Part shown: positions 39,917 to 52,276 of the stretch, piece after piece
Layout of the letters: every line of letters starts with the position of its first letter
Numbering within the stretch: position 1 is the first letter of the stretch
Assembly: GCA_001803205.1 (NCBI GenBank)
Contig: MHBE01000031.1
Span: 15,238 to 79,237, forward strand
From: Lentisphaerae bacterium GWF2_38_69
GTDB taxonomy: Bacteria > Verrucomicrobiota > Lentisphaeria > Victivallales > GWF2-38-69
Reading direction: 5' to 3'
DNA length: 64,000 bases
The notes under the pieces: generated by a model
What the model was told of the DNA's origin: nothing
The model's database searches: none
What the model saw: the letters and a program-made list of their open reading frames with translations, nothing else
Translations under genes and position numbers: made by a program

Positions 39917-42715
39917 TCAATCTTCCAAATACATTATGTCCTGGATATAGAAAGAATCAGGATGAGTCTCGTCATACTTTACACGGGCAAGAATTTTTTG
40001 AGAGGATGTAACTTCATCTGCGTTAATATCAAATCTTCCTTTTTTTACATTAACTTCCTGATTGCTCTTGTAAATGCTGGCAGTACCCTCATCAGGACCT
40101 ATGTCCTTAAGCGTTTGGCCAACAGCTATTATCGTATATAAATCAGGAGTTTCAACTTTCGTCAGATTAATAAATTTTCCAATTAACTCTTCTTTTGAGG
40201 CATCGGTAGTTTGTCCTGACTGTGTGGTAAGTTCAGAAACCTCATTTACAATTTGAGCCCTTGTGACGAAAGGACTTCCTCCCGTGGTTCCGTTCTGATC
40301 GAGAACTTCTTGGGCTATGGTATTGGCAGTAGAGACAGAAATAGCTGAACCTCCGCTGGCAGGATCATTGCCTGTACTGCTTTTTATATTACTTCCAATT
40401 TTTATCTGATCAAATAGTGTTCTTAAGACTGAAACATTATCTGAATTCAAATTTATTTTCCCTAGAGTGGCAGAATTTGAGGTCATTTTTACCTGGTCAA
40501 GAATATTTGCATCGCCCAGGATGTATGTGCCTCCTCCCGCGCTAGGGCCAAAACCGTTTCCATCAGCTGCCTCATTGTATTTTTTCAGGTTTAGCGTCTG
40601 GAAGGCTTTTGCTCTGTGTATAAATCCCAGTTCCCACGGCGATTTCATAGGAGCATTGCGGATGAAGGCTGTGGAAATACCCGTAGGATCCGTAGCTGTT
40701 TCAAGATCGTAGGTAGTGCCATTAAAAATTGACCTGGCTAAAGTGTAGGAAGTGTTCACTGAACCTATTGTGGCGTTAGCTGCTGTCTGGCTTGAAGTCT
40801 GATTAAGGTTAGCAGTGGAAGTCCCAGGCGTGCTGATCCAATCTTCCTGTTTTAGATTCTGCCTCGGGTCTTTTACCTGATAGTCTAAGGTTATGTATGC
40901 TGTATTAGTAGTATTGCTAGTACCGTTAACAGTAAAGAATGGAGTTTCAGGAGTAACGAGCATCGTAGGCATTTCTGAATAGTCGTAAAGTGTATTGCCA
41001 TCAGTGCTCATCAGTTTTATCTTCAAACTTTTAACAGTTACAGCCATTTTTATTCTGAGAGTTTTGACATTATTTACATTAATATTTGTCCCTTTGGTCT
41101 TTGTATCATTCAGACCAACTTGAAGCGGCGTTGCAGGAGAGATAGAATAATAGGTTTTTGAGCTAATAGAAGGAGTGTCGAATGAGACGGTAGTAGTGTC
41201 TGTTCCGGAAGTTCCAAACATATAAGTTGAAGTTCCGTACCAGAATTGATATGAGAAATCAGGTTCTACATAAATTTTGTAGACCCTTGAGTTAATTCCG
41301 TCATAGAGATTGACAAGCTCTACAGTTAGAGTGGGTGTAACATCGAAGTCGTATGTATATGGACTTGTCGATGTCCTCTTAATGACTGCTTTAAATTGAA
41401 TCATTACTTCGTTTATATACGGAACTTTTTCCAGGCCAAGATAGCCGGGGACAGATGGTGAATCAGTAGTAGGAATATCGTCAATATCGCAGTAATCAAT
41501 AAGATTTGCTATGATCTGGGGTTTTGTAGAATTAGGATCGTTCCACTCTATCAACCATTGTAAATAGTTCTGAGAATTTTTTGCAGCATTACCTATGGCA
41601 TTAACAGCAACTCCATTTGGATCCTGGCTAGATAAGGTATCCCAGTCCGTTCTGGAAAGGTTAAACCTTTCTTGCATTTCGCCTTGTTCTTTTATCAAAT
41701 CTTTATTTTCATCGATCCAGTATTTTTCATCATCAGGAGTGGAATTAACATAAAAAACCTTCTTAAAGTATTCTCTTATTGAGTCATTGTCCTGAGTTAT
41801 TCCGAGTGTACTGAAAAGCTGTTCATAATCTTCCCAGTCCCCAGCGCTGCCAGTATCCACCAATCCAGCCTGACTGCAGGTATTTACGCTCATTTTTGTA
41901 GGGTATTCTGCAGCAGGGGGGAAAGAATCCGCATCGTATTCTAAGCTCATAAGGCATAATTCATTAATATCCCTTCCAGGTCTGCCTGAGACATATGAAC
42001 CATCCGATGCTACAGAGCTATTGCCCCCACCGTAATTATCTTCAGAAGGAGGATTTTTATTGTATTCGGATGCATTATACCCTGAATCTATGACTGCCCA
42101 GGGATCTATTTTTCCTTTATCAGGGAGAACCACATAGGCAATTCTGCCAAAAATTTGTGTATCCGTATAGGTCTGATGCTGAGGGCTTTTAATATAAACC
42201 CAGGACAGAGCGGAAGTATCGCTAATATCGTAAGCTGTGTTAGACGGATAATCTACTGGAATCTCAAGATAAGTGATGCCATTGATTACAGTTGTAAGCT
42301 GTGATGCAAGATCATCTCCAAGAATAGCTCTTTTCTCGGCATCGGTCAGGGATGCGTCATTAGCGATATCTGCATCATGGCTTACAATTTCATTCATATT
42401 CTCCTGTGGGTCAGTAGACTTGTATTTCATATTAGCCATTGCCCTGTTAAAGGCTGTTTGAGCTAGAGCCCTGGCTATATTTATATCCTGAAAGTTGACT
42501 GCAGATTTCCTTTCAATCATGGAAGTTGTGACAAACGCTATCCCAACCATCAGAAGAAGCGCTGAAATACCGATGGCAAGAATTGTTGCCATTCCAGAGT
42601 TGTGGTTAGGGGATAGGGGACTGGGATTGGGGGAATGGGATTGTGTTTTGCGATTCATGAAAAAGAAAAAGCGAATTGTAGATTTTAGATTGCTGATTTT
42701 AGATTTCAAATTCAT
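39917..42715 (-). CDS. Giant GspK/PilX-like minor pseudopilin (arm 1)
   Basis: Leader ending ...NHNSG, then MATILAIGISALLLMVGIAFVTTS (GspK-type hydrophobic N-terminus with no Glu+5). GspK-like IIANLIDYCDIDD...YLGLEKVPYINE and ELGFIHRAKAF blocks. Paralogue of 47584..49740. 932 aa. Confidence 0.65.
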   Translation of the reverse strand: MNLKSKISNLKSTIRFFFFMNRKTQSHSPNPSPLSPNHNSGMATILAIGISALLLMVGIAFVTTSMIERKSAVNFQDINIARALAQTAFNRAMANMKYKSTDPQENMNEIVSHDADIANDASLTDAEKRAILGDDLASQLTTVINGITYLEIPVDYPSNTAYDISDTSALSWVYIKSPQHQTYTDTQIFGRIAYVVLPDKGKIDPWAVIDSGYNASEYNKNPPSEDNYGGGNSSVASDGSYVSGRPGRDINELCLMSLEYDADSFPPAAEYPTKMSVNTCSQAGLVDTGSAGDWEDYEQLFSTLGITQDNDSIREYFKKVFYVNSTPDDEKYWIDENKDLIKEQGEMQERFNLSRTDWDTLSSQDPNGVAVNAIGNAAKNSQNYLQWLIEWNDPNSTKPQIIANLIDYCDIDDIPTTDSPSVPGYLGLEKVPYINEVMIQFKAVIKRTSTSPYTYDFDVTPTLTVELVNLYDGINSRVYKIYVEPDFSYQFWYGTSTYMFGTSGTDTTTVSFDTPSISSKTYYSISPATPLQVGLNDTKTKGTNINVNNVKTLRIKMAVTVKSLKIKLMSTDGNTLYDYSEMPTMLVTPETPFFTVNGTSNTTNTAYITLDYQVKDPRQNLKQEDWISTPGTSTANLNQTSSQTAANATIGSVNTSYTLARSIFNGTTYDLETATDPTGISTAFIRNAPMKSPWELGFIHRAKAFQTLNLKKYNEAADGNGFGPSAGGGTYILGDANILDQVKMTSNSATLGKINLNSDNVSVLRTLFDQIKIGSNIKSSTGNDPASGGSAISVSTANTIAQEVLDQNGTTGGSPFVTRAQIVNEVSELTTQSGQTTDASKEELIGKFINLTKVETPDLYTIIAVGQTLKDIGPDEGTASIYKSNQEVNVKKGRFDINADEVTSSQKILARVKYDETHPDSFYIQDIMYLED

Positions 42716-42740
42716 AAAACAGTTAATAGTTGTCAGTTGC
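42671..42740 (-). repeat. 70-nt heptamer-periodic element spanning the arm-1 K-gene start codon
   Basis: Minus strand reads GCAACTG ACAACTA TTAACTG TTTTATG AATTTGA AATCTAA AATCAGC AATCTAA AATCTAC AATTCGC. 58/70 positions are identical to 47559..47628 by hand alignment. Confidence 0.8.
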
Positions 42741-42859
42741 TAGGTGATAGAATTATAATATGAAAAACTCTTTTTAAAACAAGGAACTACACAAAACAAC
42801 AATACTTTAACATAAAACCCAACACTCAAAATTTAACATTTGCCTTGCTCTCATTCTTC

Positions 42860-43723
42860 CTACTGCCCTCTGTCTCCGAGCAATACTGTCCTTGTAAAAG
42901 TAAGTTGCTTCGCTTCACGAAAATCCCTGGCTATTTCAGGCTCACCGGTATATTCAGGAGCGTGATATACGGTTGAACCGCATAGAGAAATCCATTTGTC
43001 CCATGAAGATTTATCCAATAGAGTCAGGTTAATAGTTACAGTTGTAGGGAATTGCGAAGCAGAGCAGGCGTTATTAGCTTTGGAGGTGGTCTGATCCGGC
43101 GGCAATACGCTGTTTGCGTCTGAATCGGTATCGCAAACAAAAGATACATCCAGCACATTCGGGATTAAATTCCGGTAATCCTGGGAAGAAGTCGAATTGG
43201 CGGTTAATGAAGCAGTAGGAACAGCCTCTGTCGTGTACCCTACTGTCAAGTTGTTCTGCCAGTTCCATCTTGTGTCAGTTTCGTCTTCATCTGTTATATT
43301 TCCAGTAATGCTTCTTCTTAGCCAGCCTTCATGCTCATCATTGTGATTAGCCGCATAATATAATTGGTACTTCAGTTCATATTTATTGGAAGTGCAATTG
43401 TTATTAGGCGGAATAGGAGAATAGGTGACAAACGCAAGAAGCTCATTGCTGAATTCATTCCAGTTAGCTCCCGGGGACATTTTTGCATGATGCCAGAAAG
43501 GGGCACTGGAATCTTCAGTCTTATATATTGCAGACTCCAAATCCCGTGTCATCAAATCTATGGCAATTCTTGCGTTTTCAAAAACCTCCTGCCTGGCATT
43601 TGTGATCGCCCAGGTATTCTGGTAGGATGAAAATAAAGTAAACGATACCGTTATGAGCAGTGACAGAATTGCCATGGACATAACAAGTTCAGTAAGTGTA
43701 AATAATGAAATTCTGCGAAGCAT
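42860..43723 (-). CDS. GspJ/PilW-like minor pseudopilin (arm 1)
   Basis: Class III signal-peptide core LFTLTELVMSMAILSLL, then QEVFENARIAIDLMTRDLESA, a GspJ-type helix. Paralogue of 46646..47491 (shared KYQLYYAA, SSQDY..LIP, FR....TF.R.V..G.RGQ). Confidence 0.7.
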   Translation of the reverse strand: MLRRISLFTLTELVMSMAILSLLITVSFTLFSSYQNTWAITNARQEVFENARIAIDLMTRDLESAIYKTEDSSAPFWHHAKMSPGANWNEFSNELLAFVTYSPIPPNNNCTSNKYELKYQLYYAANHNDEHEGWLRRSITGNITDEDETDTRWNWQNNLTVGYTTEAVPTASLTANSTSSQDYRNLIPNVLDVSFVCDTDSDANSVLPPDQTTSKANNACSASQFPTTVTINLTLLDKSSWDKWISLCGSTVYHAPEYTGEPEIARDFREAKQLTFTRTVLLGDRGQ

Positions 43724-43772
43724 TATAAAATTTTAAATATAGCACTCTGGATATCTCCAGAATGGTATTAAT

Positions 43773-45296
43773 TTATTTACTTATTTCTGACATATTATAG
43801 TATTCATTGTAAAATCTTAACTTTTGCCTCTTGCTGTAGTCCATCTGAGAGAGAGGCCAGCTGAGTTCGGCATTGACGCCTATTCCAGTTGAAATATTAC
43901 TGCTGCTGTCTGGATTTGGGGTAGGAGTTACTATCGGATCTGTTGTTCCATCATCTATAGAACCAATTGAAGGCAGTATCTGAATCTGCCATTGACCCAT
44001 TCCAGAATTATTTTTCCAGATTTTAACACTCAGGGCATTTGCGGTCTTTGAATTTATTTTTATATTTTTGCCATCAATTATTATATCTTGATTACCAACA
44101 TTTAATGTGGCATTGTCTCCATTCTTGGTTTTCATCTTCAGAGTATTGGCAGAAAATGTTTTGGAGTTTGGTGCTATATATTGAGCTTCATCTGGGTTAT
44201 TTCCTTTACTGATATTTTTCATCATATTTCTGTCCAGAATGACGCCCGTATCTGAACTTAATTCAAAAGCATAATCATTGTTAGTAGGTGAGATTCCAAT
44301 TCCCGTTACTGAAGTTTTTATTGAATCTGTTGGAACAGGATCAATATTGGTCAATATTACCAAATCCTGGTAGTCTTTGACAATACCATCAACATCAAAA
44401 AGATATATTATCTGGTCATTGGCGATGGCAATATTCTCTCCGTCATCATCCAGATATGGCTGAACTAAAGTCGCATTGGATTTCTGTCCATAATAGGGAG
44501 CATCAGTAGGTAGTGGAGACCCATTTTTTAAAGTATGAACCTTGCTTGTGTTTGTAGATAGCGATGAATAAGAAGTCCCTCCAAGGGTACCATAAGCTTC
44601 GCTGACAAAAGTTGTTCCAGCTGGAAGATTAGAGAGGTCAAATTCTCCTGAAGTACTTTCTACCGGAACATTTTGACCAAAAGGATATATTGTGTATTCA
44701 TTTTTGCCAGGTTCTTTAATTTTAACTCTAAAATATACATTATCTGGCCATTCAGAACCTATTGCTTTGAATTTGACATTTGCGTTAGATGTATTTGTAA
44801 CAGTTCCGCTTGTTATATTAAAAGCAGAAGGCTCTTCCGGAGGTGCTTGAGCAGTTCCAGGTTTCTTCAGTATATTTGAATTCATGCCAGGTGGAATGCT
44901 CTGCCAGACAACAAGCTGCGCTGAATAGTCTTCAGTGCTGGAGGTTGATTTGGATATTATATAGACACCGGGAACATTGGTGTCATAAATATCTGTAGAC
45001 ACCTTGTCTTGTTTTACTGCTTCTGTAATAACTGGCTGAGCTGAATTGTTCTGAGAAAAAAGATCACTGTATTCCGGGAGATCTGCCAAAGCACTGAAGT
45101 CCTTCTCTGAGAGATTCGCAAAGTAAGCCTTGGCATCTCCAGTAAAAATTCCTGCATAGTTCTCTCCAATAGCGTCTTTCTTTTCTTTAATTCCTGTTGG
45201 CATTAAAGTTACTACAGCAGTAGCCCCTATAGCAAGTATACCAACAGCAATTGCTACTTCCACCAGGGTAAAGAGTTTTATATTCAATGTCTTCAT
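43773..45296 (-). CDS. Oversized GspI/PilV-like minor pseudopilin (arm 1)
   Basis: N-terminus MKTLNIKLFTLVEVAIAVGILAIGATAVVTLMPTGIKEKKDA. The C-terminal GIGVNAELSWPL...RFYNEYY is shared with 45584..46645. 507 aa. SD gagg upstream. Confidence 0.55.
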   Translation of the reverse strand: MKTLNIKLFTLVEVAIAVGILAIGATAVVTLMPTGIKEKKDAIGENYAGIFTGDAKAYFANLSEKDFSALADLPEYSDLFSQNNSAQPVITEAVKQDKVSTDIYDTNVPGVYIISKSTSSTEDYSAQLVVWQSIPPGMNSNILKKPGTAQAPPEEPSAFNITSGTVTNTSNANVKFKAIGSEWPDNVYFRVKIKEPGKNEYTIYPFGQNVPVESTSGEFDLSNLPAGTTFVSEAYGTLGGTSYSSLSTNTSKVHTLKNGSPLPTDAPYYGQKSNATLVQPYLDDDGENIAIANDQIIYLFDVDGIVKDYQDLVILTNIDPVPTDSIKTSVTGIGISPTNNDYAFELSSDTGVILDRNMMKNISKGNNPDEAQYIAPNSKTFSANTLKMKTKNGDNATLNVGNQDIIIDGKNIKINSKTANALSVKIWKNNSGMGQWQIQILPSIGSIDDGTTDPIVTPTPNPDSSSNISTGIGVNAELSWPLSQMDYSKRQKLRFYNEYYNMSEISK

Positions 45297-46645: not shown

Positions 46646-47491
46646 ATGGATATTCGCAGCCGCTTGAAAATTAGATACTTTTCTTTAATTGAACTTATTG
46701 CTGCCATGTCGATCTTCATTTTGTTTCTAACTGTTGCTTTTCAATTTGTCTCCACTACTCAAAATGCGATTAGCATCTCAGGAAAAAGAAGGGGGCTTAC
46801 TGAAGACGCCAGAATTGCGCTGGATATAATTGCAAGGGATCTCCAGAACTCATATTACGGTAACGAATCTGGTAATTATGCTCAATTTTGGCATTGGGGA
46901 CAAGATGAAAATGGAACTCCATTGAGGCCATCTGCCTGGGGCGAATACAGAAATGAGCTAATAGCTTTTATTTCCAATACGCCTATTCCTCCTGAAGACT
47001 GTACTTCAAAGCTTTGTGAAGTAAAATATCAGCTTTATTATGCCGCTTCTCATGACTCTAATGAAGGTTGGCTTATCAGAAGCGTCACTGGTGATATTGA
47101 TGGAGCGAAATGGAATTTTAAAGATAATCTAGAGGCTGGCTATAGTTCTTCAGCTTCAGCTTTTAGTGCTGACAACGCTTCATCCCAGGACTACCAGAAA
47201 TTAATTCCTCATGTCGTTGATTTAAGGTTTGATTGTTATGATATTGACGGAGACACAATTCGTGCGGATGATAATGTAACCACATCAGCCAGAGATATTC
47301 CTCCCGGTTCGTTCCCTTATTTAGTAAATATCACAATTACTCTTATGGATGATGAATCCTGGATGAAATGGAAAGAACTTTCAGGAACAGCTCCGTATCC
47401 TGATGATTCGGGGGCAGCCAAAACATTCAGAGAGAATAATCAGCAGACTTTCGTAAGAGCTGTTCACATAGGCAACAGGGGACAAAATTGA
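46646..47491 (+). CDS. GspJ/PilW-like minor pseudopilin (arm 2)
   Basis: MDIRSRLKIRYFSLIELIAAMSIFILFL...EDARIALDIIARDLQNS. Starts immediately after the stop codon of the I-like gene. Confidence 0.7.
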   Translation: MDIRSRLKIRYFSLIELIAAMSIFILFLTVAFQFVSTTQNAISISGKRRGLTEDARIALDIIARDLQNSYYGNESGNYAQFWHWGQDENGTPLRPSAWGEYRNELIAFISNTPIPPEDCTSKLCEVKYQLYYAASHDSNEGWLIRSVTGDIDGAKWNFKDNLEAGYSSSASAFSADNASSQDYQKLIPHVVDLRFDCYDIDGDTIRADDNVTTSARDIPPGSFPYLVNITITLMDDESWMKWKELSGTAPYPDDSGAAKTFRENNQQTFVRAVHIGNRGQN

Positions 47492-47558
47492 GAATGAAGG
47501 AAAGTGTTCAGTTTTGAGTGTTGAGTTTTGAGTTAAAGCATTATAATTATATCAGTTA

Positions 47559-47628
47559 ACAACTGATAACTATCAACTGTTCTATGAATTTAAAATTTAA
47601 AATCTGCAATCTGAAATCTGTAATCCGT
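47559..47628 (+). repeat. 70-nt heptamer-periodic element spanning the arm-2 K-gene start codon
   Basis: ACAACTG ATAACTA TCAACTG TTCTATG AATTTAA AATTTAA AATCTGC AATCTGA AATCTGT AATCCGT. Confidence 0.8.
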
Positions 47629-49740
47629 CTTTCCCTATCCCCGAACCGCGAGCCACGAACCACGAGTTACGAATCAGGTATTTCCACAATAATAGCCATC
47701 GGAATTACCACTATGCTTCTGGGTATTGCCGTGGCCTTTGTCTCGACTTCAATTATAGAAAAAAAAGCCACTTCTAACAATATGGACATAAACACTGCTA
47801 GATTCATGGCTTATGCCGCGTATCAACGGGCAAAAGAGTCAATCATCAATTCGAACGCACTTTATCAGGATATTTATCCTGTTGATACAAGCAGGAATTT
47901 AGATGACGAAGAAAGAGCTGACCTTATAGCAAATTTGGAAACAGTCATTACCAGTAGTGAAACTACCGATACATACATTGTAACAGACACAGGTATTACA
48001 TGGTCTTATCAGCAATCTACTGATAATGAGCCAAATAGATGGCTGAGCCGCCTCTCGTATGCCGCAATGGCAGATCCTGATACTCCCGAAGCTAAAGAAG
48101 CATTCTGGATCCCGTCTTCAGCCTCTGATACTACAATAGATGATTCAGAACTCTACCACAGATTCGACCTTATGAATTATACATGGGATGAGGCTACTGT
48201 AACTTCATTTTTGGGGGGAGATACTATCAATTTTGATGACAATCCTGGTGCTACAACATCAACTGTTATTCCCTGGTTGAAAAACTGGGAAGATTTCGGG
48301 GATATGGGAAGCGCAACTGCAGCCAGAAACCAGATTATTGCTAATTTAATTGATTATTGTGACTCAGATAGTGCTGCTACGACTGACTATGATGGCGTAA
48401 CCTCGCCAACATATGTAGGCCTTGAAAAATGTCCTTATATAAATGAAATAGTGTTAAAATGCTATGTTTATGTGTCCTATGTGGGATCTTCAAGCGGTGG
48501 GCCAGGATTCAGATTGCGTCTTTATGTGACTCCTTCTGTCGAACAGGTAAATTTGTATGATGAATCAGCTTCTCAAAAAGTCGAAGTTGATGTGACTGCT
48601 ATGTATACAATAACTTTCTCTTGGTATAGTGGTTCCTGGCCCACTTGCGAAGAAAGTCTTGCAGCGACCTCGCCTGATACTACTGTTACAACAAATTCTA
48701 AAAGCTATAGCGCATCAACTATGGAAGAATTTTATGGAGCGACAGTTAGTTCAGTATCTGACAATATTTTTTTTCAGGTATCAAGCTTTAGAATTACAAA
48801 TATCACAGTTAAGCTATTTGACTCCAGTAATAATTTGCAGGATTATTCCATAGTTTTAGATTCGCCAGTGACATGTGATGAAGCAAATGTTTCTGGAGGT
48901 TTTGGACATTCTGCTACATCACCTGTGTTTTTTCTCAGATATGAAGCAAATGACTCTCGACAGAATTTGCTCTCAAACGACTGGACATATTCTACTACAG
49001 ATTCTTCTTTAGGTTCTGACAACTCAAATTTTAATCCAAATCCCGGAGGAGACACAGATGCAGAACCAACCGCAACTCATCCCTGGGAAATTTCCACTGC
49101 TTATATTGCCGATACCAATATGCAGTCGGCAGCAGAACTTGGATATATTCACAGGGCTAAAGCATTTCAGACTATCAATCTTAAGACATTCAATGATACT
49201 GAAGGGTTGCTAGATACCGCAGGGGGAAATGCCTATGCTGACGGAGATGCCAATATCCTGGATCAGGTTAAACTAGACACTGATATTTCTCGAAACGAAT
49301 ATATCAATCTTAACTCTAGGGACAGATATCTTTTTTCCTCATTAACTGAACTCTATGGAGAAGGAATATCGACAGAAACGGCTGTTAGCGCTTTAAATAT
49401 TGCCAGACCCTTGGCTCTTTATCAGTCAAGAGCATCCATTCTTGCAAATTCAGATTTGGCAGATGTGCCTTTGGAACTTTCATCAATTCTTTATCCTGTC
49501 CAGGAAACTGACACGGAAAGGGAACAAGTTATAGGTGATGTGATAACAGGTTGTGAAGCGATGAATCAATCCTATTTCATAATTGGATTAGGGGAATCTT
49601 TCAGAGATGTAGTTAATTATAAGCAGTACGATGCAGATATTGATATCGTTTCTTCCTCTCAGAAAGTCCTCACCAAAATGCAGAAAACAATAGGATCTGA
49701 TTCTAGCAAGGTAGTAGAATTCCAGTATCTATCAGATTAA
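47584..49740 (+). CDS. Giant GspK/PilX-like minor pseudopilin (arm 2)
   Basis: Leader MNLKFKICNLKSVIR...SYESG, then ISTIIAIGITTMLLGIAVAFVSTS. IIANLIDYCDSDS...YVGLEKCPYINE and ELGYIHRAKAF blocks. 718 aa. Confidence 0.65.
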   Translation: MNLKFKICNLKSVIRLSLSPNREPRTTSYESGISTIIAIGITTMLLGIAVAFVSTSIIEKKATSNNMDINTARFMAYAAYQRAKESIINSNALYQDIYPVDTSRNLDDEERADLIANLETVITSSETTDTYIVTDTGITWSYQQSTDNEPNRWLSRLSYAAMADPDTPEAKEAFWIPSSASDTTIDDSELYHRFDLMNYTWDEATVTSFLGGDTINFDDNPGATTSTVIPWLKNWEDFGDMGSATAARNQIIANLIDYCDSDSAATTDYDGVTSPTYVGLEKCPYINEIVLKCYVYVSYVGSSSGGPGFRLRLYVTPSVEQVNLYDESASQKVEVDVTAMYTITFSWYSGSWPTCEESLAATSPDTTVTTNSKSYSASTMEEFYGATVSSVSDNIFFQVSSFRITNITVKLFDSSNNLQDYSIVLDSPVTCDEANVSGGFGHSATSPVFFLRYEANDSRQNLLSNDWTYSTTDSSLGSDNSNFNPNPGGDTDAEPTATHPWEISTAYIADTNMQSAAELGYIHRAKAFQTINLKTFNDTEGLLDTAGGNAYADGDANILDQVKLDTDISRNEYINLNSRDRYLFSSLTELYGEGISTETAVSALNIARPLALYQSRASILANSDLADVPLELSSILYPVQETDTEREQVIGDVITGCEAMNQSYFIIGLGESFRDVVNYKQYDADIDIVSSSQKVLTKMQKTIGSDSSKVVEFQYLSD

Positions 49741-49764
49741 GAATTTAAAATATTATATTTATTA

Positions 49765-50391
49765 GTGCTTAAAATTGAAAAAATTGGACAAGTAAAGTCA
49801 CTATTGAAAGTGACTTTTGACAATGGCTCATCCTTGCTGTTCTTGCCTGATATCGTATATGGAAGAAGCCTTAAAGAAGGAAATTCATACGAAGAATCAG
49901 TAATAAATGCCTTGATTGCGCAAAACGATGAAAGCCTCTGTTTTCAATCTTTGCTGAAGATTCTGAAAACAAGGATGCACTCGACCGGAGAACTAAGACG
50001 AAAACTTGCAGCTAAAAAGTTTAACTTTTCCTTAATTGAACACGCTATACAAAAAGCTTTGGAGACAGGAGTTACCAGGGACGAGAATGCTGCTGAGTGC
50101 TATAAAAACGAACTTTCTGCTAAAGGCTACGGCTCTTTCAGGATCAGGGACGCGATGAGAAGGAAAGGCTTCTCTGAAGATATAATTGATAATTTTATCA
50201 CAACAGATACTTCTGCTTCTGATGAGGAAAACGAAAATGCTAAAAGGATATTCGAGAAAAAGCTCGCATCTCTTAAAAAAGATAAATCGCTTCTTAAGCA
50301 TAAACTAAGAGAGAAACTTTTTCGGTTCATGCAAAGTAAAGGGTATTCTTCGGAAACTATTTTATCTCTAATAAAGGACTTTTCTGATTAG
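49765..50391 (+). CDS. recX: RecX-like regulatory protein
   Basis: 208 aa with a GTG start. Three-helix-repeat pattern (...SLCFQSLLKILKTRMHSTGELRRKL...GYGSFRIRDAMRRKGF...LFRFMQSKGYS) typical of RecX. Confidence 0.7.
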   Translation: MLKIEKIGQVKSLLKVTFDNGSSLLFLPDIVYGRSLKEGNSYEESVINALIAQNDESLCFQSLLKILKTRMHSTGELRRKLAAKKFNFSLIEHAIQKALETGVTRDENAAECYKNELSAKGYGSFRIRDAMRRKGFSEDIIDNFITTDTSASDEENENAKRIFEKKLASLKKDKSLLKHKLREKLFRFMQSKGYSSETILSLIKDFSD

Positions 50392-50467
50392 GGATTAGAC
50401 TTTCTTACTCTCAGATGTAATTTTTGTTTTCCTTTTATTTAGAATTTTACAATCACATTTATTTTCA

Positions 50468-52276
50468 ATGGATAAAAATTATATTCGAAACTTCTCAATC
50501 GTAGCACATATTGATCATGGTAAATCCACTCTAGCGGACAGATTTCTTGAAGCTACAAATGCGATAGACAAAAGAGACATTCAGGCTCAGGTTCTCGATA
50601 GTATGGATCTTGAGAGAGAAAGAGGTATCACAATTAAATCGCATCCGGTCAGAATGACTTACAAAGCTTCCGACGGAAAGGTGTATGAATTTAACCTTAT
50701 TGACACTCCCGGTCATGTGGACTTTACTTACGAGGTCAGCAGATCTCTGGCTGCCTGCGAAGGAGCCCTCCTTCTTGTCGATGCTGCCCAGGGTATTCAG
50801 GCTCAGACTGTAGCCAATGCAAAACTTGCGATGAAGCAAAAACTTGTCATTATACCAGTTATCAATAAGATTGATCTTCCTTCAGCCAATATTGACCTTT
50901 GCTATCAGCAACTGGAAGAGGTTCTTGCTATTCCGAGAGAAGAAGTGATACTTACCAGCGCAAAGGATGGAACAGGCGTTATTGAAATCCTCGAAACTGT
51001 CGTTAAAAGAGTTCCTCCTCCCATGACTTCTTCTGATATAAAAGGAACTAATGCTCTTATCTTTGATTCTCAGTACAACGCCTACAGAGGTGTCGTTAAT
51101 TATGTGAAAGTTGAGAAAGGTTTCCTGAAACGAGGCCACAAAATCCGTCTCTTCAGCAATGATCTGGAGAGCGATATAAAGGAAGTAGGATATTTTAAGC
51201 CCGGCGGAATGGTTCCTCTTGAAGAACTAACTGAAGGTTCAGTAGGTTATGTGATTCCCAATATAAAATCTCCAGCTGACACAAAAATAGGTGATACGAT
51301 AACAAGAATAGACGACCTTTCACTGCGCCAGCTTCCGGGATTCAAGGAAATAAAACCCTTGGTTTTCAGCGGAATATATCCTATAGATACAGCAGATTAT
51401 GAACAACTTAAGTTCAGTATGGCAAAACTGCAGCTCAATGATTCAGCTTTTATTTACCAGGCAGAAAGCTGTGTAGCCCTTGGTTTCGGATTCAGATGCG
51501 GTTTTCTCGGCCTTCTGCATATGGAAATTATTCAGGAAAGACTTCGCAGAGAGTACGACATGGATATCATTGCTACTTACCCCAGCGTAGTTTACAGAGT
51601 TTTTCCAAAAAGCGGGGATATGATGCTCATTGATAATCCGATTCATCTGCCTGATCCGACACTGATAGAGAGAATCGAAGAGCCTCTTATAAAGGCCAGC
51701 ATAATGATCCCGAATATTTACATCGGAGAGGTGATGAATCTCGTCATGCATAAGAGAGGTGAATGCCAATGCACAGAATCCGTTGATGGAAATCATGTGA
51801 TTATTACTGCAATTCTTCCTCTTCACGAGATACTTATAGATTTTCATGACAAACTCAAATCATGTACAAAAGGTTACGGGAGCATGGATTATGAAGAATC
51901 CGGTTATAGAGCTGACGATATGGTAAAACTTGATATACTTGTTCACGGTGAACCGGTTGATGCCTTTTCCTCGATAGTTCACAGAAGCTTTGCAGAATAT
52001 AGAGGAAGACAAATTGCCGAAAAACTCAAAGATGTTATTCCTCCGCAAATGTTCCAGGTGCCTATTCAGGCCGCCATAGGAGGAAAAGTCATCGCCAGGG
52101 AAACTGTCCGGCAGTTGAGGAAGAATGTTCTTGCCAAATGTTACGGAGGAGATATTACGCGTAAGAGGAAACTCCTTGAAAAACAGAAAGAGGGCAAGAA
52201 AAAGATGAAACAGGTCGGTAAAGTCAACATTCCACAGGAAGCATTCGTAGAAATTCTAAAATCTGATACAAACTGA
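50468..52276 (+). CDS. lepA: Elongation factor 4 (translational GTPase LepA)
   Basis: IRNFSIVAHIDHGKSTLADR, DTPGHVDF and NKID G-motifs, with the LepA-specific C-terminus ...AKCYGGDITRKRKLLEKQKEGKKKMK. Confidence 0.95.
   Translation: MDKNYIRNFSIVAHIDHGKSTLADRFLEATNAIDKRDIQAQVLDSMDLERERGITIKSHPVRMTYKASDGKVYEFNLIDTPGHVDFTYEVSRSLAACEGALLLVDAAQGIQAQTVANAKLAMKQKLVIIPVINKIDLPSANIDLCYQQLEEVLAIPREEVILTSAKDGTGVIEILETVVKRVPPPMTSSDIKGTNALIFDSQYNAYRGVVNYVKVEKGFLKRGHKIRLFSNDLESDIKEVGYFKPGGMVPLEELTEGSVGYVIPNIKSPADTKIGDTITRIDDLSLRQLPGFKEIKPLVFSGIYPIDTADYEQLKFSMAKLQLNDSAFIYQAESCVALGFGFRCGFLGLLHMEIIQERLRREYDMDIIATYPSVVYRVFPKSGDMMLIDNPIHLPDPTLIERIEEPLIKASIMIPNIYIGEVMNLVMHKRGECQCTESVDGNHVIITAILPLHEILIDFHDKLKSCTKGYGSMDYEESGYRADDMVKLDILVHGEPVDAFSSIVHRSFAEYRGRQIAEKLKDVIPPQMFQVPIQAAIGGKVIARETVRQLRKNVLAKCYGGDITRKRKLLEKQKEGKKKMKQVGKVNIPQEAFVEILKSDTN

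Follow-up and report, generated by a model that had tools for sequence, protein, structure and literature searches.

The 64,000-nt window analysed here (contig MHBE01000031.1 of assembly GCA_001803205.1, positions 15,238 to 79,237 of the forward strand) belongs to Lentisphaerae bacterium GWF2_38_69, a metagenome-assembled genome (MAG) of the order Victivallales (Lentisphaerota) that measures 3.12 Mb, has a GC content of 37.6% and is 95% complete; we refer to it as the source genome (G000). Our subject is a series of 7-nt repeats that occupies the junction between two pseudopilin-type genes in each of two divergent arms of this window. We call these genes J and K, names that serve as position labels only. 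In arm 2, a J-like pseudopilin gene from the open reading frame (ORF) list (46646-47491, + strand) ends in ...GNRGQN-TGA and is followed by K2 (P0002; 47584-49740, + strand), which encodes a 718-aa pseudopilin-like protein at the K position. Arm 1 carries K1 (P0001; 39917-42715, - strand), a 932-aa paralogue with a 41-aa leader, and the source genome contains at least four full-length K paralogues in all. At its N-terminus, the arm-2 J protein has a match to TIGR02599 (Verru_Chthon cassette protein C) and a weak one to gspJ; it is 51% identical to the J gene product of locus L018. We considered and rejected an assignment of K as GspK, the minor pseudopilin K of the type II secretion system, as searches of K against Pfam and NCBIfam and with a PDB profile gave no GspK match, and a fold search gave none at E <= 1e-3.

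The original prediction described ten in-register heptamers running across each K start codon, and both arms contain them as claimed. The arm-2 units (47559-47628, + strand) read ACAACTG ATAACTA TCAACTG TTCTATG AATTTAA AATTTAA AATCTGC AATCTGA AATCTGT AATCCGT, and those of arm 1 (42740-42671, - strand) read GCAACTG ACAACTA TTAACTG TTTTATG AATTTGA AATCTAA AATCAGC AATCTAA AATCTAC AATTCGC. Lag-7 identity was 0.57 over 47492-47628 and 0.65 over the ten units, compared with ~0.29-0.30 in mononucleotide, composition-preserving shuffles (z 6-10); the signal was echoed at lags 14 and 21, and other lags were unremarkable. Tandem Repeats Finder (TRF) independently reported both K tracts. A lag-7 identity of at least 0.55 over 130 nt is reached at 14 loci in the 3.12-Mb genome, both K loci among them. 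By these two measures, the K tracts are head-to-tail 7-nt repeats longer than expected by chance, as are the heptanucleotide long simple sequence repeats (LSSRs) and short tandemly repeated repetitive (STRR) sequences of other bacteria. Their units are degenerate (72-88% matches by TRF), with a longest identical run of ~2.4 units. The periodic region is more extensive than had been predicted: in arm 2, the register continues through a CGAACCA tract to a Gly codon at 47677-47679, giving ~17 units.

Several distinct repeats can be recognized along arm 2. Right after the J stop lies a tract of 4.4 AGTTTTG/AGTGTTG heptamers (47503-47534, + strand; TRF). AGTTTTG is the commonest heptamer family of the source genome, and the arm-2 copy, which is antisense relative to the usual AACTCAA orientation, has BLAST matches to arrays on contigs C18, C27, C53, C12, C7, C45, C17 and C13. 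It is followed by the palindrome ATTATAAT (47540-47549), which presents TATAAT on both strands and forms a -10-like box ~36 nt upstream of the K2 ATG; this palindrome is conserved in arm 1 (42752-42759) and in the congener G006. Three YAACTRN heptamers (ACAACTG ATAACTA TCAACTG; 47559-47579, + strand), related but not identical to TAACTGA, then occupy the position of a Shine-Dalgarno (SD) sequence. Arrays of at least three YAACNNN units number 14 in the genome and 3-5 in shuffles, and both K copies stop 3 nt before the ATG. The K2 start codon (47584-47586, + strand) falls within the unit TTCTATG, and the six AATYTNN heptamers after it (47587-47628, + strand; TRF and unit-position analysis) code for NLKFKICNLKSVIR. 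The remainder of the leader (47629-47679, + strand) keeps the same 7-nt register, includes the CGAACCA tract at 47642-47665 (TRF) and ends at the Gly-1 codon, GGT (47677-47679).

Arm 1 has tracts equivalent to those of arm 2. Its ten heptamers (42671-42740, - strand) include the ATG at 42715-42713, and a TTTTGAG/TGTTGGG tract after the J1 stop (42808-42833, - strand) matches the arm-2 tract at 89% over 27 nt by BLAST. In addition, the K1 leader contains a 63-nt insertion relative to its orthologue in G006 (42602-42664, - strand, with approximate boundaries; TRF 42610-42643), which is mostly of the CCCCAAT type and corresponds in the alignment to nine heptamers, or 21 codons. The distance from J stop to K ATG is 92 nt in arm 2 and 144 nt in arm 1, and the extra sequence is nearly all heptamer-periodic. 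In both window K genes the arrays separate the ATG from the J stop and extend across the start codon, so that they are translated as a long leader before the invariant Gly. The J-K junction and the entire K leader consist of three or four juxtaposed, decayed heptanucleotide simple-repeat arrays of the LSSR/STRR class.

The region encoded by these repeats has the features of a prepilin-type leader: it is basic, ends in a Gly and precedes a hydrophobic N-terminal helix, and the genome contains a gene for a Peptidase_A24 prepilin peptidase (C53:4912-5265). The Gly before the hydrophobic segment (Gly32 in K2) is invariant in 29 homologues, and the AlphaFold 2 model of K2 (mean predicted local distance difference test score, pLDDT, 76) has residues 1-29 disordered, a helix at 30-89 and then a beta-rich body. 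The leader is therefore probably cleaved by the encoded prepilin peptidase. Leader lengths of 32 aa (arm 2) and 41 aa (arm 1) before the Gly-hydrophobic junction had been proposed, and these values are right if the ATG within the tract is used, as the evidence on reading frame indicates. They had been called unusual against GspK leaders of fewer than 10 aa, which is the wrong baseline, as leaders in the K family range from 6 to 43 aa with a median of 19.

We found AATCNNN tracts in five K genes: those of arm 1 and arm 2, the G006 orthologue of the arm-1 gene, P0004 (locus L018) and P0005 (L020). In all five, the ATG frame alone is open and the other two frames contain stops. In the ATG frame, a TA or TG dinucleotide at every third unit would make TAA or TGA; the K genes avoid this, and their stop-prone units read AGC, TGC, AGA, CAA, CGC, CGT, GCA or GGA instead. 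If six units were sampled from those of non-K arrays, the resulting array would be open in the ATG register with a chance of ~0.16; of the non-K arrays themselves, the three longest have no open frame. K2 has no in-frame ATG, GTG or TTG before M44, which falls inside the transmembrane helix, and neither arm 2 nor L020 offers an alternative in-frame start that preserves this helix. Three sequence features, namely a single open frame set by the ATG, the lack of such an alternative start in arm 2 and L020, and a 63-nt indel that keeps the frame, indicate that the K leader is translated and that selection acts on its frame. Gene calls by JGI, ENA and Logan place the K2 start at the 47584 ATG. A 675-aa database version of K2 (P0003) begins at M44 (47713), inside the N-terminal hydrophobic helix, and is likely a wrong start call, brought about by a leader that lacks an SD and is coded by repeats. 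Searches for the exact products of P0003 and P0001 returned no match; the exact product of P0002 is present on 5 contigs, and the one checked, an ENA contig of the same organism, is identical over 3357 nt.

Other K genes show what the junction looks like when arrays are missing. On contig C32 of the source genome, two further K paralogues (41897-44452, - strand, and 48287-50797, + strand) form a second divergent pair with J-like genes upstream and are free of heptamers. Their starts coincide with the J stop (...RGQ(N)*) or follow it by a few nt, and they have the leaders MSKLINEKG and MKKLLNNEENG, so this pair is a natural internal control for the cassette. Leaders of array-free K genes, counting the C32 paralogues and the orthologues in the congener G007, are 9-11 aa long, with 26 aa in a third G007 gene. 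The tract had been expected at orthologous K genes, an expectation borne out by the G006 orthologue and contradicted by those of G007, which have none. In the K tree, the genes with heptamer leaders fall in one well-supported clade of nine members, interleaved with tract-free genes, and at least three gains or losses are therefore needed. The sister of K1 (P0031, locus L079), with a 43-aa leader, showed no clear heptamers. Directly downstream of P0031, which belongs to another MAG, is a HigB-like toxin/HTH_3 antitoxin pair (L079 4436-5035).

To place the conservation of the tracts on a scale, we used four-fold degenerate sites at identical residues as a neutral reference. Identity at these sites was 27-36% in all pairs of the five K genes, compared with a compositional expectation of 29%, and 32% between J1 and its counterpart in G006. 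As these values are near the compositional expectation, neutral divergence is saturated. Against this background, identity in the 45 nt before the K start codon (-45 to -1) was 82% between arm 1 and arm 2, 89% between arm 1 and G006, and 80% between arm 2 and G006. Within +4 to +45 it was 81% between the arms, 86% between arm 1 and G006, and 76-86% across all three pairs. Random 45-mers in window pairs had a mean identity of 26% and a 99.9th percentile of 47%. For a housekeeping control we used lepA, whose protein is 86% identical between G000 and either G006 or G007 (four-fold sites 36-40%); its -45 to -1 region is identical at 21/45 positions (47%) in both comparisons. The conserved block shared by arm 1 and G006 extends from about -95 to +45. 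Outside it, the heptamer tract after the J stop belongs to a different unit family in G006. Because core identity of 80-89% contrasts with saturated four-fold sites and with 47% in a housekeeping 5' region, we argue that the core is under purifying selection at the nucleotide level and would be functional DNA or RNA rather than junk.

The pattern of variation within the coding tract follows the heptamer rather than the codon. Among the five K genes, variation was present at 8/10 variable-dinucleotide positions versus 6/25 core positions of the unit (p=0.006), with no effect of codon position (p=0.7). The coding tracts of the window are 62-71% identical to those of L018 and L020, and unrelated arrays of the same family reach 55-79%. 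As unrelated arrays are equally similar, we rejected the reading that the coding tract is conserved site by site as far as L018 and L020, and the case for deep conservation rests on arm 1, arm 2 and G006.

Neither K gene has an SD sequence, as originally predicted: no SD 4-mer is present 4-13 nt upstream of either start. The further statement that this set them apart from most genes did not hold, since an SD is found in 22/56 window ORFs and 40% of genome ORFs, making SD-less genes the majority. The region from -30 to +45 (75 nt) has a minimum free energy of -3.1 and -3.2 kcal/mol in the two arms, which places it, by degree of structure, in the lowest 9% of genes and in the lowest 6% of GC-matched random 75-mers. 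RNA folding of the locus found no structure beyond that of shuffles, and an Rfam search of the locus returned no match at E <= 1.

From these observations, we propose that the core is a K-specific 5' untranslated region (UTR) and SD-independent initiation module, unstructured, A-rich and G-poor, that would uncouple K from J, a reading to which we assign a probability of roughly 0.45. Under this proposal, the arrays would be products of replication slippage, as is usually assumed for heptamer LSSRs, and would be tolerated since the J-K spacer and the cleaved leader are permissive; the sequence of a leader that is removed by the peptidase may vary freely, provided that its frame stays open. The ~90-nt core (TATAAT box, YAACTNN units, ATG and AATCNNN units) would serve in cis, helping to control or start translation. 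The tracts at the periphery, namely AGTTTTG behind the J stop, CGAACCA and the 63-nt insert of the CCCCAAT type, show rapid turnover and are probably passengers.

Several points weigh against this proposal. An initiation region that had only to be unstructured or A-rich should not need identity as high as 80-89%, which hints at sequence-specific recognition. The case for conservation beyond the motif draws on three sequences of a single genus, and two of these come from the source genome. Gene conversion between the arms is possible, as they share a genome, a problem from which the comparison of arm 1 with G006 is free. G007 has K orthologues without any cassette, which is thus dispensable, and among 251 genomes of the order the exact cassette is found in G000 (twice) and G006 only, other matches being unrelated. 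The sense strand lacks a good -35 element and the best sigma-70 matches in both arms face away from K. Finally, we infer both the transcript start and the start codon used.

Similar repeats are widespread, and the heptamer tract is not special to K genes: throughout the genome and the order, the same unit families adjoin numerous genes that are unrelated to K. TRF reported 199 rows of period-7 arrays in the source genome, with up to 25 copies and several unit families, a dispersed distribution like that of LSSR/STRR sequences. The families present at K (AAATCNN, YAACTNN, AACTCAA and CCCCAAT) recur throughout this genome and patchily across the order. Arrays lie, for example, between cistrons of a sugar-nucleotide gene cluster on C18 and directly against the ATG of a membrane-protein gene on C47. 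AAATCNN arrays were present in 9/10 genomes of the family and 17/201 sampled genomes of the order. The original prediction had called for a search for such arrays upstream of other genes, and they are present there, mostly in sense orientation and close to start codons. For 39 AAATCNN arrays in relatives, we counted ORFs of at least 100 aa that start within the array or up to 60 nt downstream; the ORF start was on the AAATC strand in 20 cases and on the other strand in 4 (p=0.0015). Over all period-7 families of the source genome, ORF starts split 19 versus 7 between the A-rich and T-rich strands (p=0.03). The adjacent genes are functionally unrelated and include dnaE-, pheT- and ribE-like genes, transporters and glycosyltransferases.

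Cleaved leaders seem to be a recurrent landing place for heptamer arrays. Other prepilin-type genes with heptamers in, or just before, the leader-coding region were found at L214 (G046:C328), L027 (G006:C44), L057 (G002:C25) and L043 (G005:C77). The heptamer-coded leader in G046 is MKTYNLQNSKTISDLRLSNSQLKSKIGNLQSTLG, also written ...LKSKIGNLQSTLG, and precedes STFTLIELL; the G002:C25 array is built of CAACTAT units. A metagenome pattern scan with the permissive pattern ATGANNNNNAAATYTAAAATC yielded no new K genes among the matches listed and one informative unrelated match, L088 (Ga0114945_10008663, 57% GC). This locus contains tandem paralogous genes for ABC substrate-binding proteins whose junctions carry heptamer arrays that differ from one another; at one of them, TTTTGAG units are followed by an ATG and AATCTAA x4, which adds the extension MNLKSKIQNLK to a signal peptide. 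The same unit families are thus found far outside Victivallales. In two species, L209 (G049:C366) and L210 (G055:C71) are orthologous 5' UTRs of a membrane-protein gene (M(I/V)WWNLY...) that consist of TATAAT, 6.5 AAATCNN units, 10 nt and the ATG; the number of units is kept between them and the variable dinucleotides differ.

Heptamer direct repeats of the sequence TAACTGA are known upstream of start codons in Beggiatoaceae, Cyanobacteria and Bacteroidetes, and post-transcriptional or translational control has already been proposed for them (MacGregor 2015, PMC4679880). Like these repeats, the K tracts are sense tandem heptamers that end a few nt before a start codon (3 nt in K), in place of an SD, and the heptamer arrays of the order likewise adjoin functionally unrelated genes and occasionally enter ORF ends. 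The pre-ATG units of K (CAACTGA, TAACTAT and CAACTGT) are 1-2 bases away from TAACTGA, and the exact heptamer occurs in neither tract. The situation described here differs in its lineage (Lentisphaerota), in the presence of several unit families with AAATCNN dominant, and, at K, in arrays that continue across the ATG and are translated. In addition, forward TAACTGA repeats have stops in all frames, whereas the K tracts have one frame purged of stops.

The first alternative that we weighed was that AAATC-N2 and YAACT-N2 units are spaced sites for a putative lineage-specific factor that binds single-stranded RNA or DNA and activates or represses initiation at K and other array-bearing genes. Such a factor, which might be an oligomeric protein, ribosomal protein S1, a Csp-like protein or a small RNA (sRNA), would generalize the RNA-binding attenuator of the original prediction. 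It would account for retention of a 5-nt core with a varying 2-nt spacer in the K tracts and in the 5' UTR arrays of G049 and G055, for the sense, start-proximal orientation across unrelated genes and for a level of identity that exceeds constraint on composition alone, and it parallels the proposal made for TAACTGA repeats (PMC4679880). However, core constancy in the non-K set is partly built in by the AAATCNN search pattern, the array-adjacent genes share no evident function, one factor cannot read the many unit families of a single genome, and no candidate factor was found, HutP and TRAP being absent. We give this alternative a low probability, although the degree of identity and the pattern of a core plus a 2-nt spacer leave real room for it.

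The specific form in which recognition had been predicted, TRAP/HutP-type attenuation, finds no support in the genome. HutP sites have a 7-nt period, and the Bacillus attenuators resemble the K tracts in that short RNA motifs recur at a fixed spacing. In contrast, HutP and TRAP profiles (PF09021 and PF02081) found no match in this 95%-complete genome, with a positive control in B. subtilis; the K units contain no UAG or GAG triplets; and the locus has no terminator/antiterminator structure, folding no better than shuffles. What survives of the predicted post-transcriptional control element is that the core acts like a nucleotide-level element, with 76-89% identity and variation set by heptamer position. 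Rather speculatively, and with a low likelihood in our judgement, AAATC-N2 and YAACT-N2 arrays may be the cis half of a system for SD-independent initiation or translational control in Victivallales, read by a candidate single-strand-binding factor at 7-nt spacing, with K embedding its site in a cleavable leader on both sides of the ATG. If so, this would give the TAACTGA/STRR class its first defined function.

It is improbable that the tracts are only neutral passengers, junk born of slippage that persists without a role where insertions are tolerated. Much of what surrounds the core behaves in this way: G007 and the C32 paralogues manage without arrays; the flanking tracts turn over between G000 and G006, as seen in the 63-nt insert and in the different family after the J stop; similar arrays lie within ordinary ORFs and signal peptides elsewhere (L026 and L088); and the coding tract is no closer to L018 and L020 than to unrelated arrays. 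Neutrality thus fits the peripheral tracts but not the core, where it is strained by the contrast between 80-89% identity from G000 to G006 and both saturated neutral sites and a housekeeping 5' region at 47%. The strand bias of the arrays relative to downstream genes also argues against it.

Quite improbable, too, is a function at the level of DNA, whether as a promoter that fires outward, or antisense, into the J 3' end, as a recombination anchor between variable pseudopilin alleles or as a site for a repressor that binds heptads. Repressors of the last kind exist, as the ribbon-helix-helix protein omega of pSM19035 binds heptad arrays. The best sigma-70 matches of the 5.3-kb region are TTGTCA-18-TATAAT in arm 1 (42730-42759, + strand; 11/12) and TTATCA-18-TATAAT in arm 2 (47569-47540, - strand; 10/12), and by eye G006 has an equivalent TTGTCG-18-TATAAT. 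In both cassettes, these promoter-like sites are antisense to the J 3' end and take their -35 from the reverse complement of YAACTGA units and their -10 from ATTATAAT. Nevertheless, promoter-like matches are no commoner in the region than in shuffles (22 versus 18.5), and the arrangement is not kept in L018. A recombination anchor would be expected to look like this conserved block, which lies beside J and K coding sequences that are hyper-diverged, but we found no evidence of silent cassettes or recombination. The K1 leader also carries on its template strand a canonical G-quadruplex (G4) motif, GGGGATAGGGGACTGGGATTGGGGG (42609-42633, + strand). Such motifs are rare in this genome (8 in all, 4/8 of them in heptamer arrays), which favors a DNA-level role, yet the G4 tract is missing from G006 and from arm 2.

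Slipped-strand gain or loss of heptamers that would toggle the K frame, as had been suggested, is the least likely rival and very improbable; it would resemble the switch of Neisseria opa. In its favor, a unit of seven is not divisible by three and the tract separates the ATG from the region encoding the mature protein; whole-array indels have occurred in evolution, and long near-perfect arrays elsewhere (up to 25 copies, several at contig ends) could be hypermutable. Against it, the K units are degenerate, and their longest identical run, ~2.4 units, is far shorter than the repeats of known contingency loci. Moreover, each of the five K tracts is in frame, the P0004 tracts are identical in two independent assemblies, the P0002 product lies on 5 contigs of which the one checked is identical over 3357 nt, and the evolutionary indel is a frame-preserving 63 nt. 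The CTCTT repeats of opa lie in the signal-peptide coding region and the 7-bp repeats of Haemophilus hmw lie between promoter and start codon. K is like both in placing a repeat that is not a multiple of three in the leader-coding (opa) or 5' (hmw) region of a surface-structure gene; unlike the degenerate K units, the opa and hmw repeats are long, perfect and variable in populations.

Two further classes of heptanucleotide repeat can be compared with the cassette. LSSRs of this unit length have been attributed to replication slippage (Mrazek 2007, as cited in PMC4679880), and STRR sequences were named in cyanobacteria (PMC2670836). The arrays described here share with them a 7-nt period, many families per genome, a mostly intergenic position, copy numbers of 2-25 and a tendency to form juxtaposed composite clusters, and differ in that one of these clusters has been kept as a conserved block where a gene starts. 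We found no literature report of heptanucleotide LSSR/STRR sequences in Victivallales. Quadruplex-forming GGGNATC and GGGGA(C/T)T heptamers occur in Xanthomonas and Nostoc, preferentially near ORF starts (Rehm 2015, PMC4692102). The 63-nt tract of arm 1, read antisense to K1 as GGGGATA GGGGACT GGGATTG GGGGAAT GGGATTG, resembles them in sequence and in its closeness to an ORF start; unlike them, it lies inside a coding leader, in one arm of one genome, where G4 motifs are rare in AT-rich DNA.

Among the long simple repeats of bacteria, those with a heptanucleotide unit are the most frequent, and their clustering at start codons, as in TAACTGA and STRR repeats, has had no explanation since they were described. 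The present cassettes add a lineage (Lentisphaerota, Victivallales) with an AAATCNN family and a bias in strand and position. They also add an array carried across a start codon into a translated, disposable leader, where it is probably tolerated because a prepilin-type leader is discarded and where selection on the frame is visible in purged stops and in a 63-nt (9x7) indel. To these they add a conservation contrast that argues for function of the core. A practical consequence is that gene callers mis-start repeat-led genes, as in the M44 call.

Several near-perfect arrays of 14-25 copies lie elsewhere in the source genome, at C18:54286-54461 (GAGTTGT/GAGTTAT), C47:77844-78021 (ATTGATG/ATTTATG) and C18:56934-57030 (TCAATTT). 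Unlike the K tracts, these are long and perfect enough that they could be hypermutable; a dnaG-like gene on the opposite strand starts 5 nt beyond the end of the first of them. We also observed a 90-nt element (...GAGAACTTTCAACTGCAATTAAAAGAAGCCGATGTAAAAGATCGACCCTCCGGATCTTTAATTCATCACAAATAG) in four copies of 96-100% identity, three at contig ends (C52:67300-67640, C24:26880-27120 and C51:69650-69913) and one internal (C47:76061-76260). Each copy adjoins a TGGAAAA/TTGAAAA/TTGATAA array of 90-180 nt, preceded in C52 and C51 by a TATAAT-like box. The boxB/boxA-like look of this flanking element raised the possibility that the long TGGAAAA/TTGAAAA arrays are rRNA-operon leaders, which we rejected as unsupported after finding no rRNA or other Rfam family beside the internal copy. 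Long arrays such as these coincide with the contig ends of the MAG.

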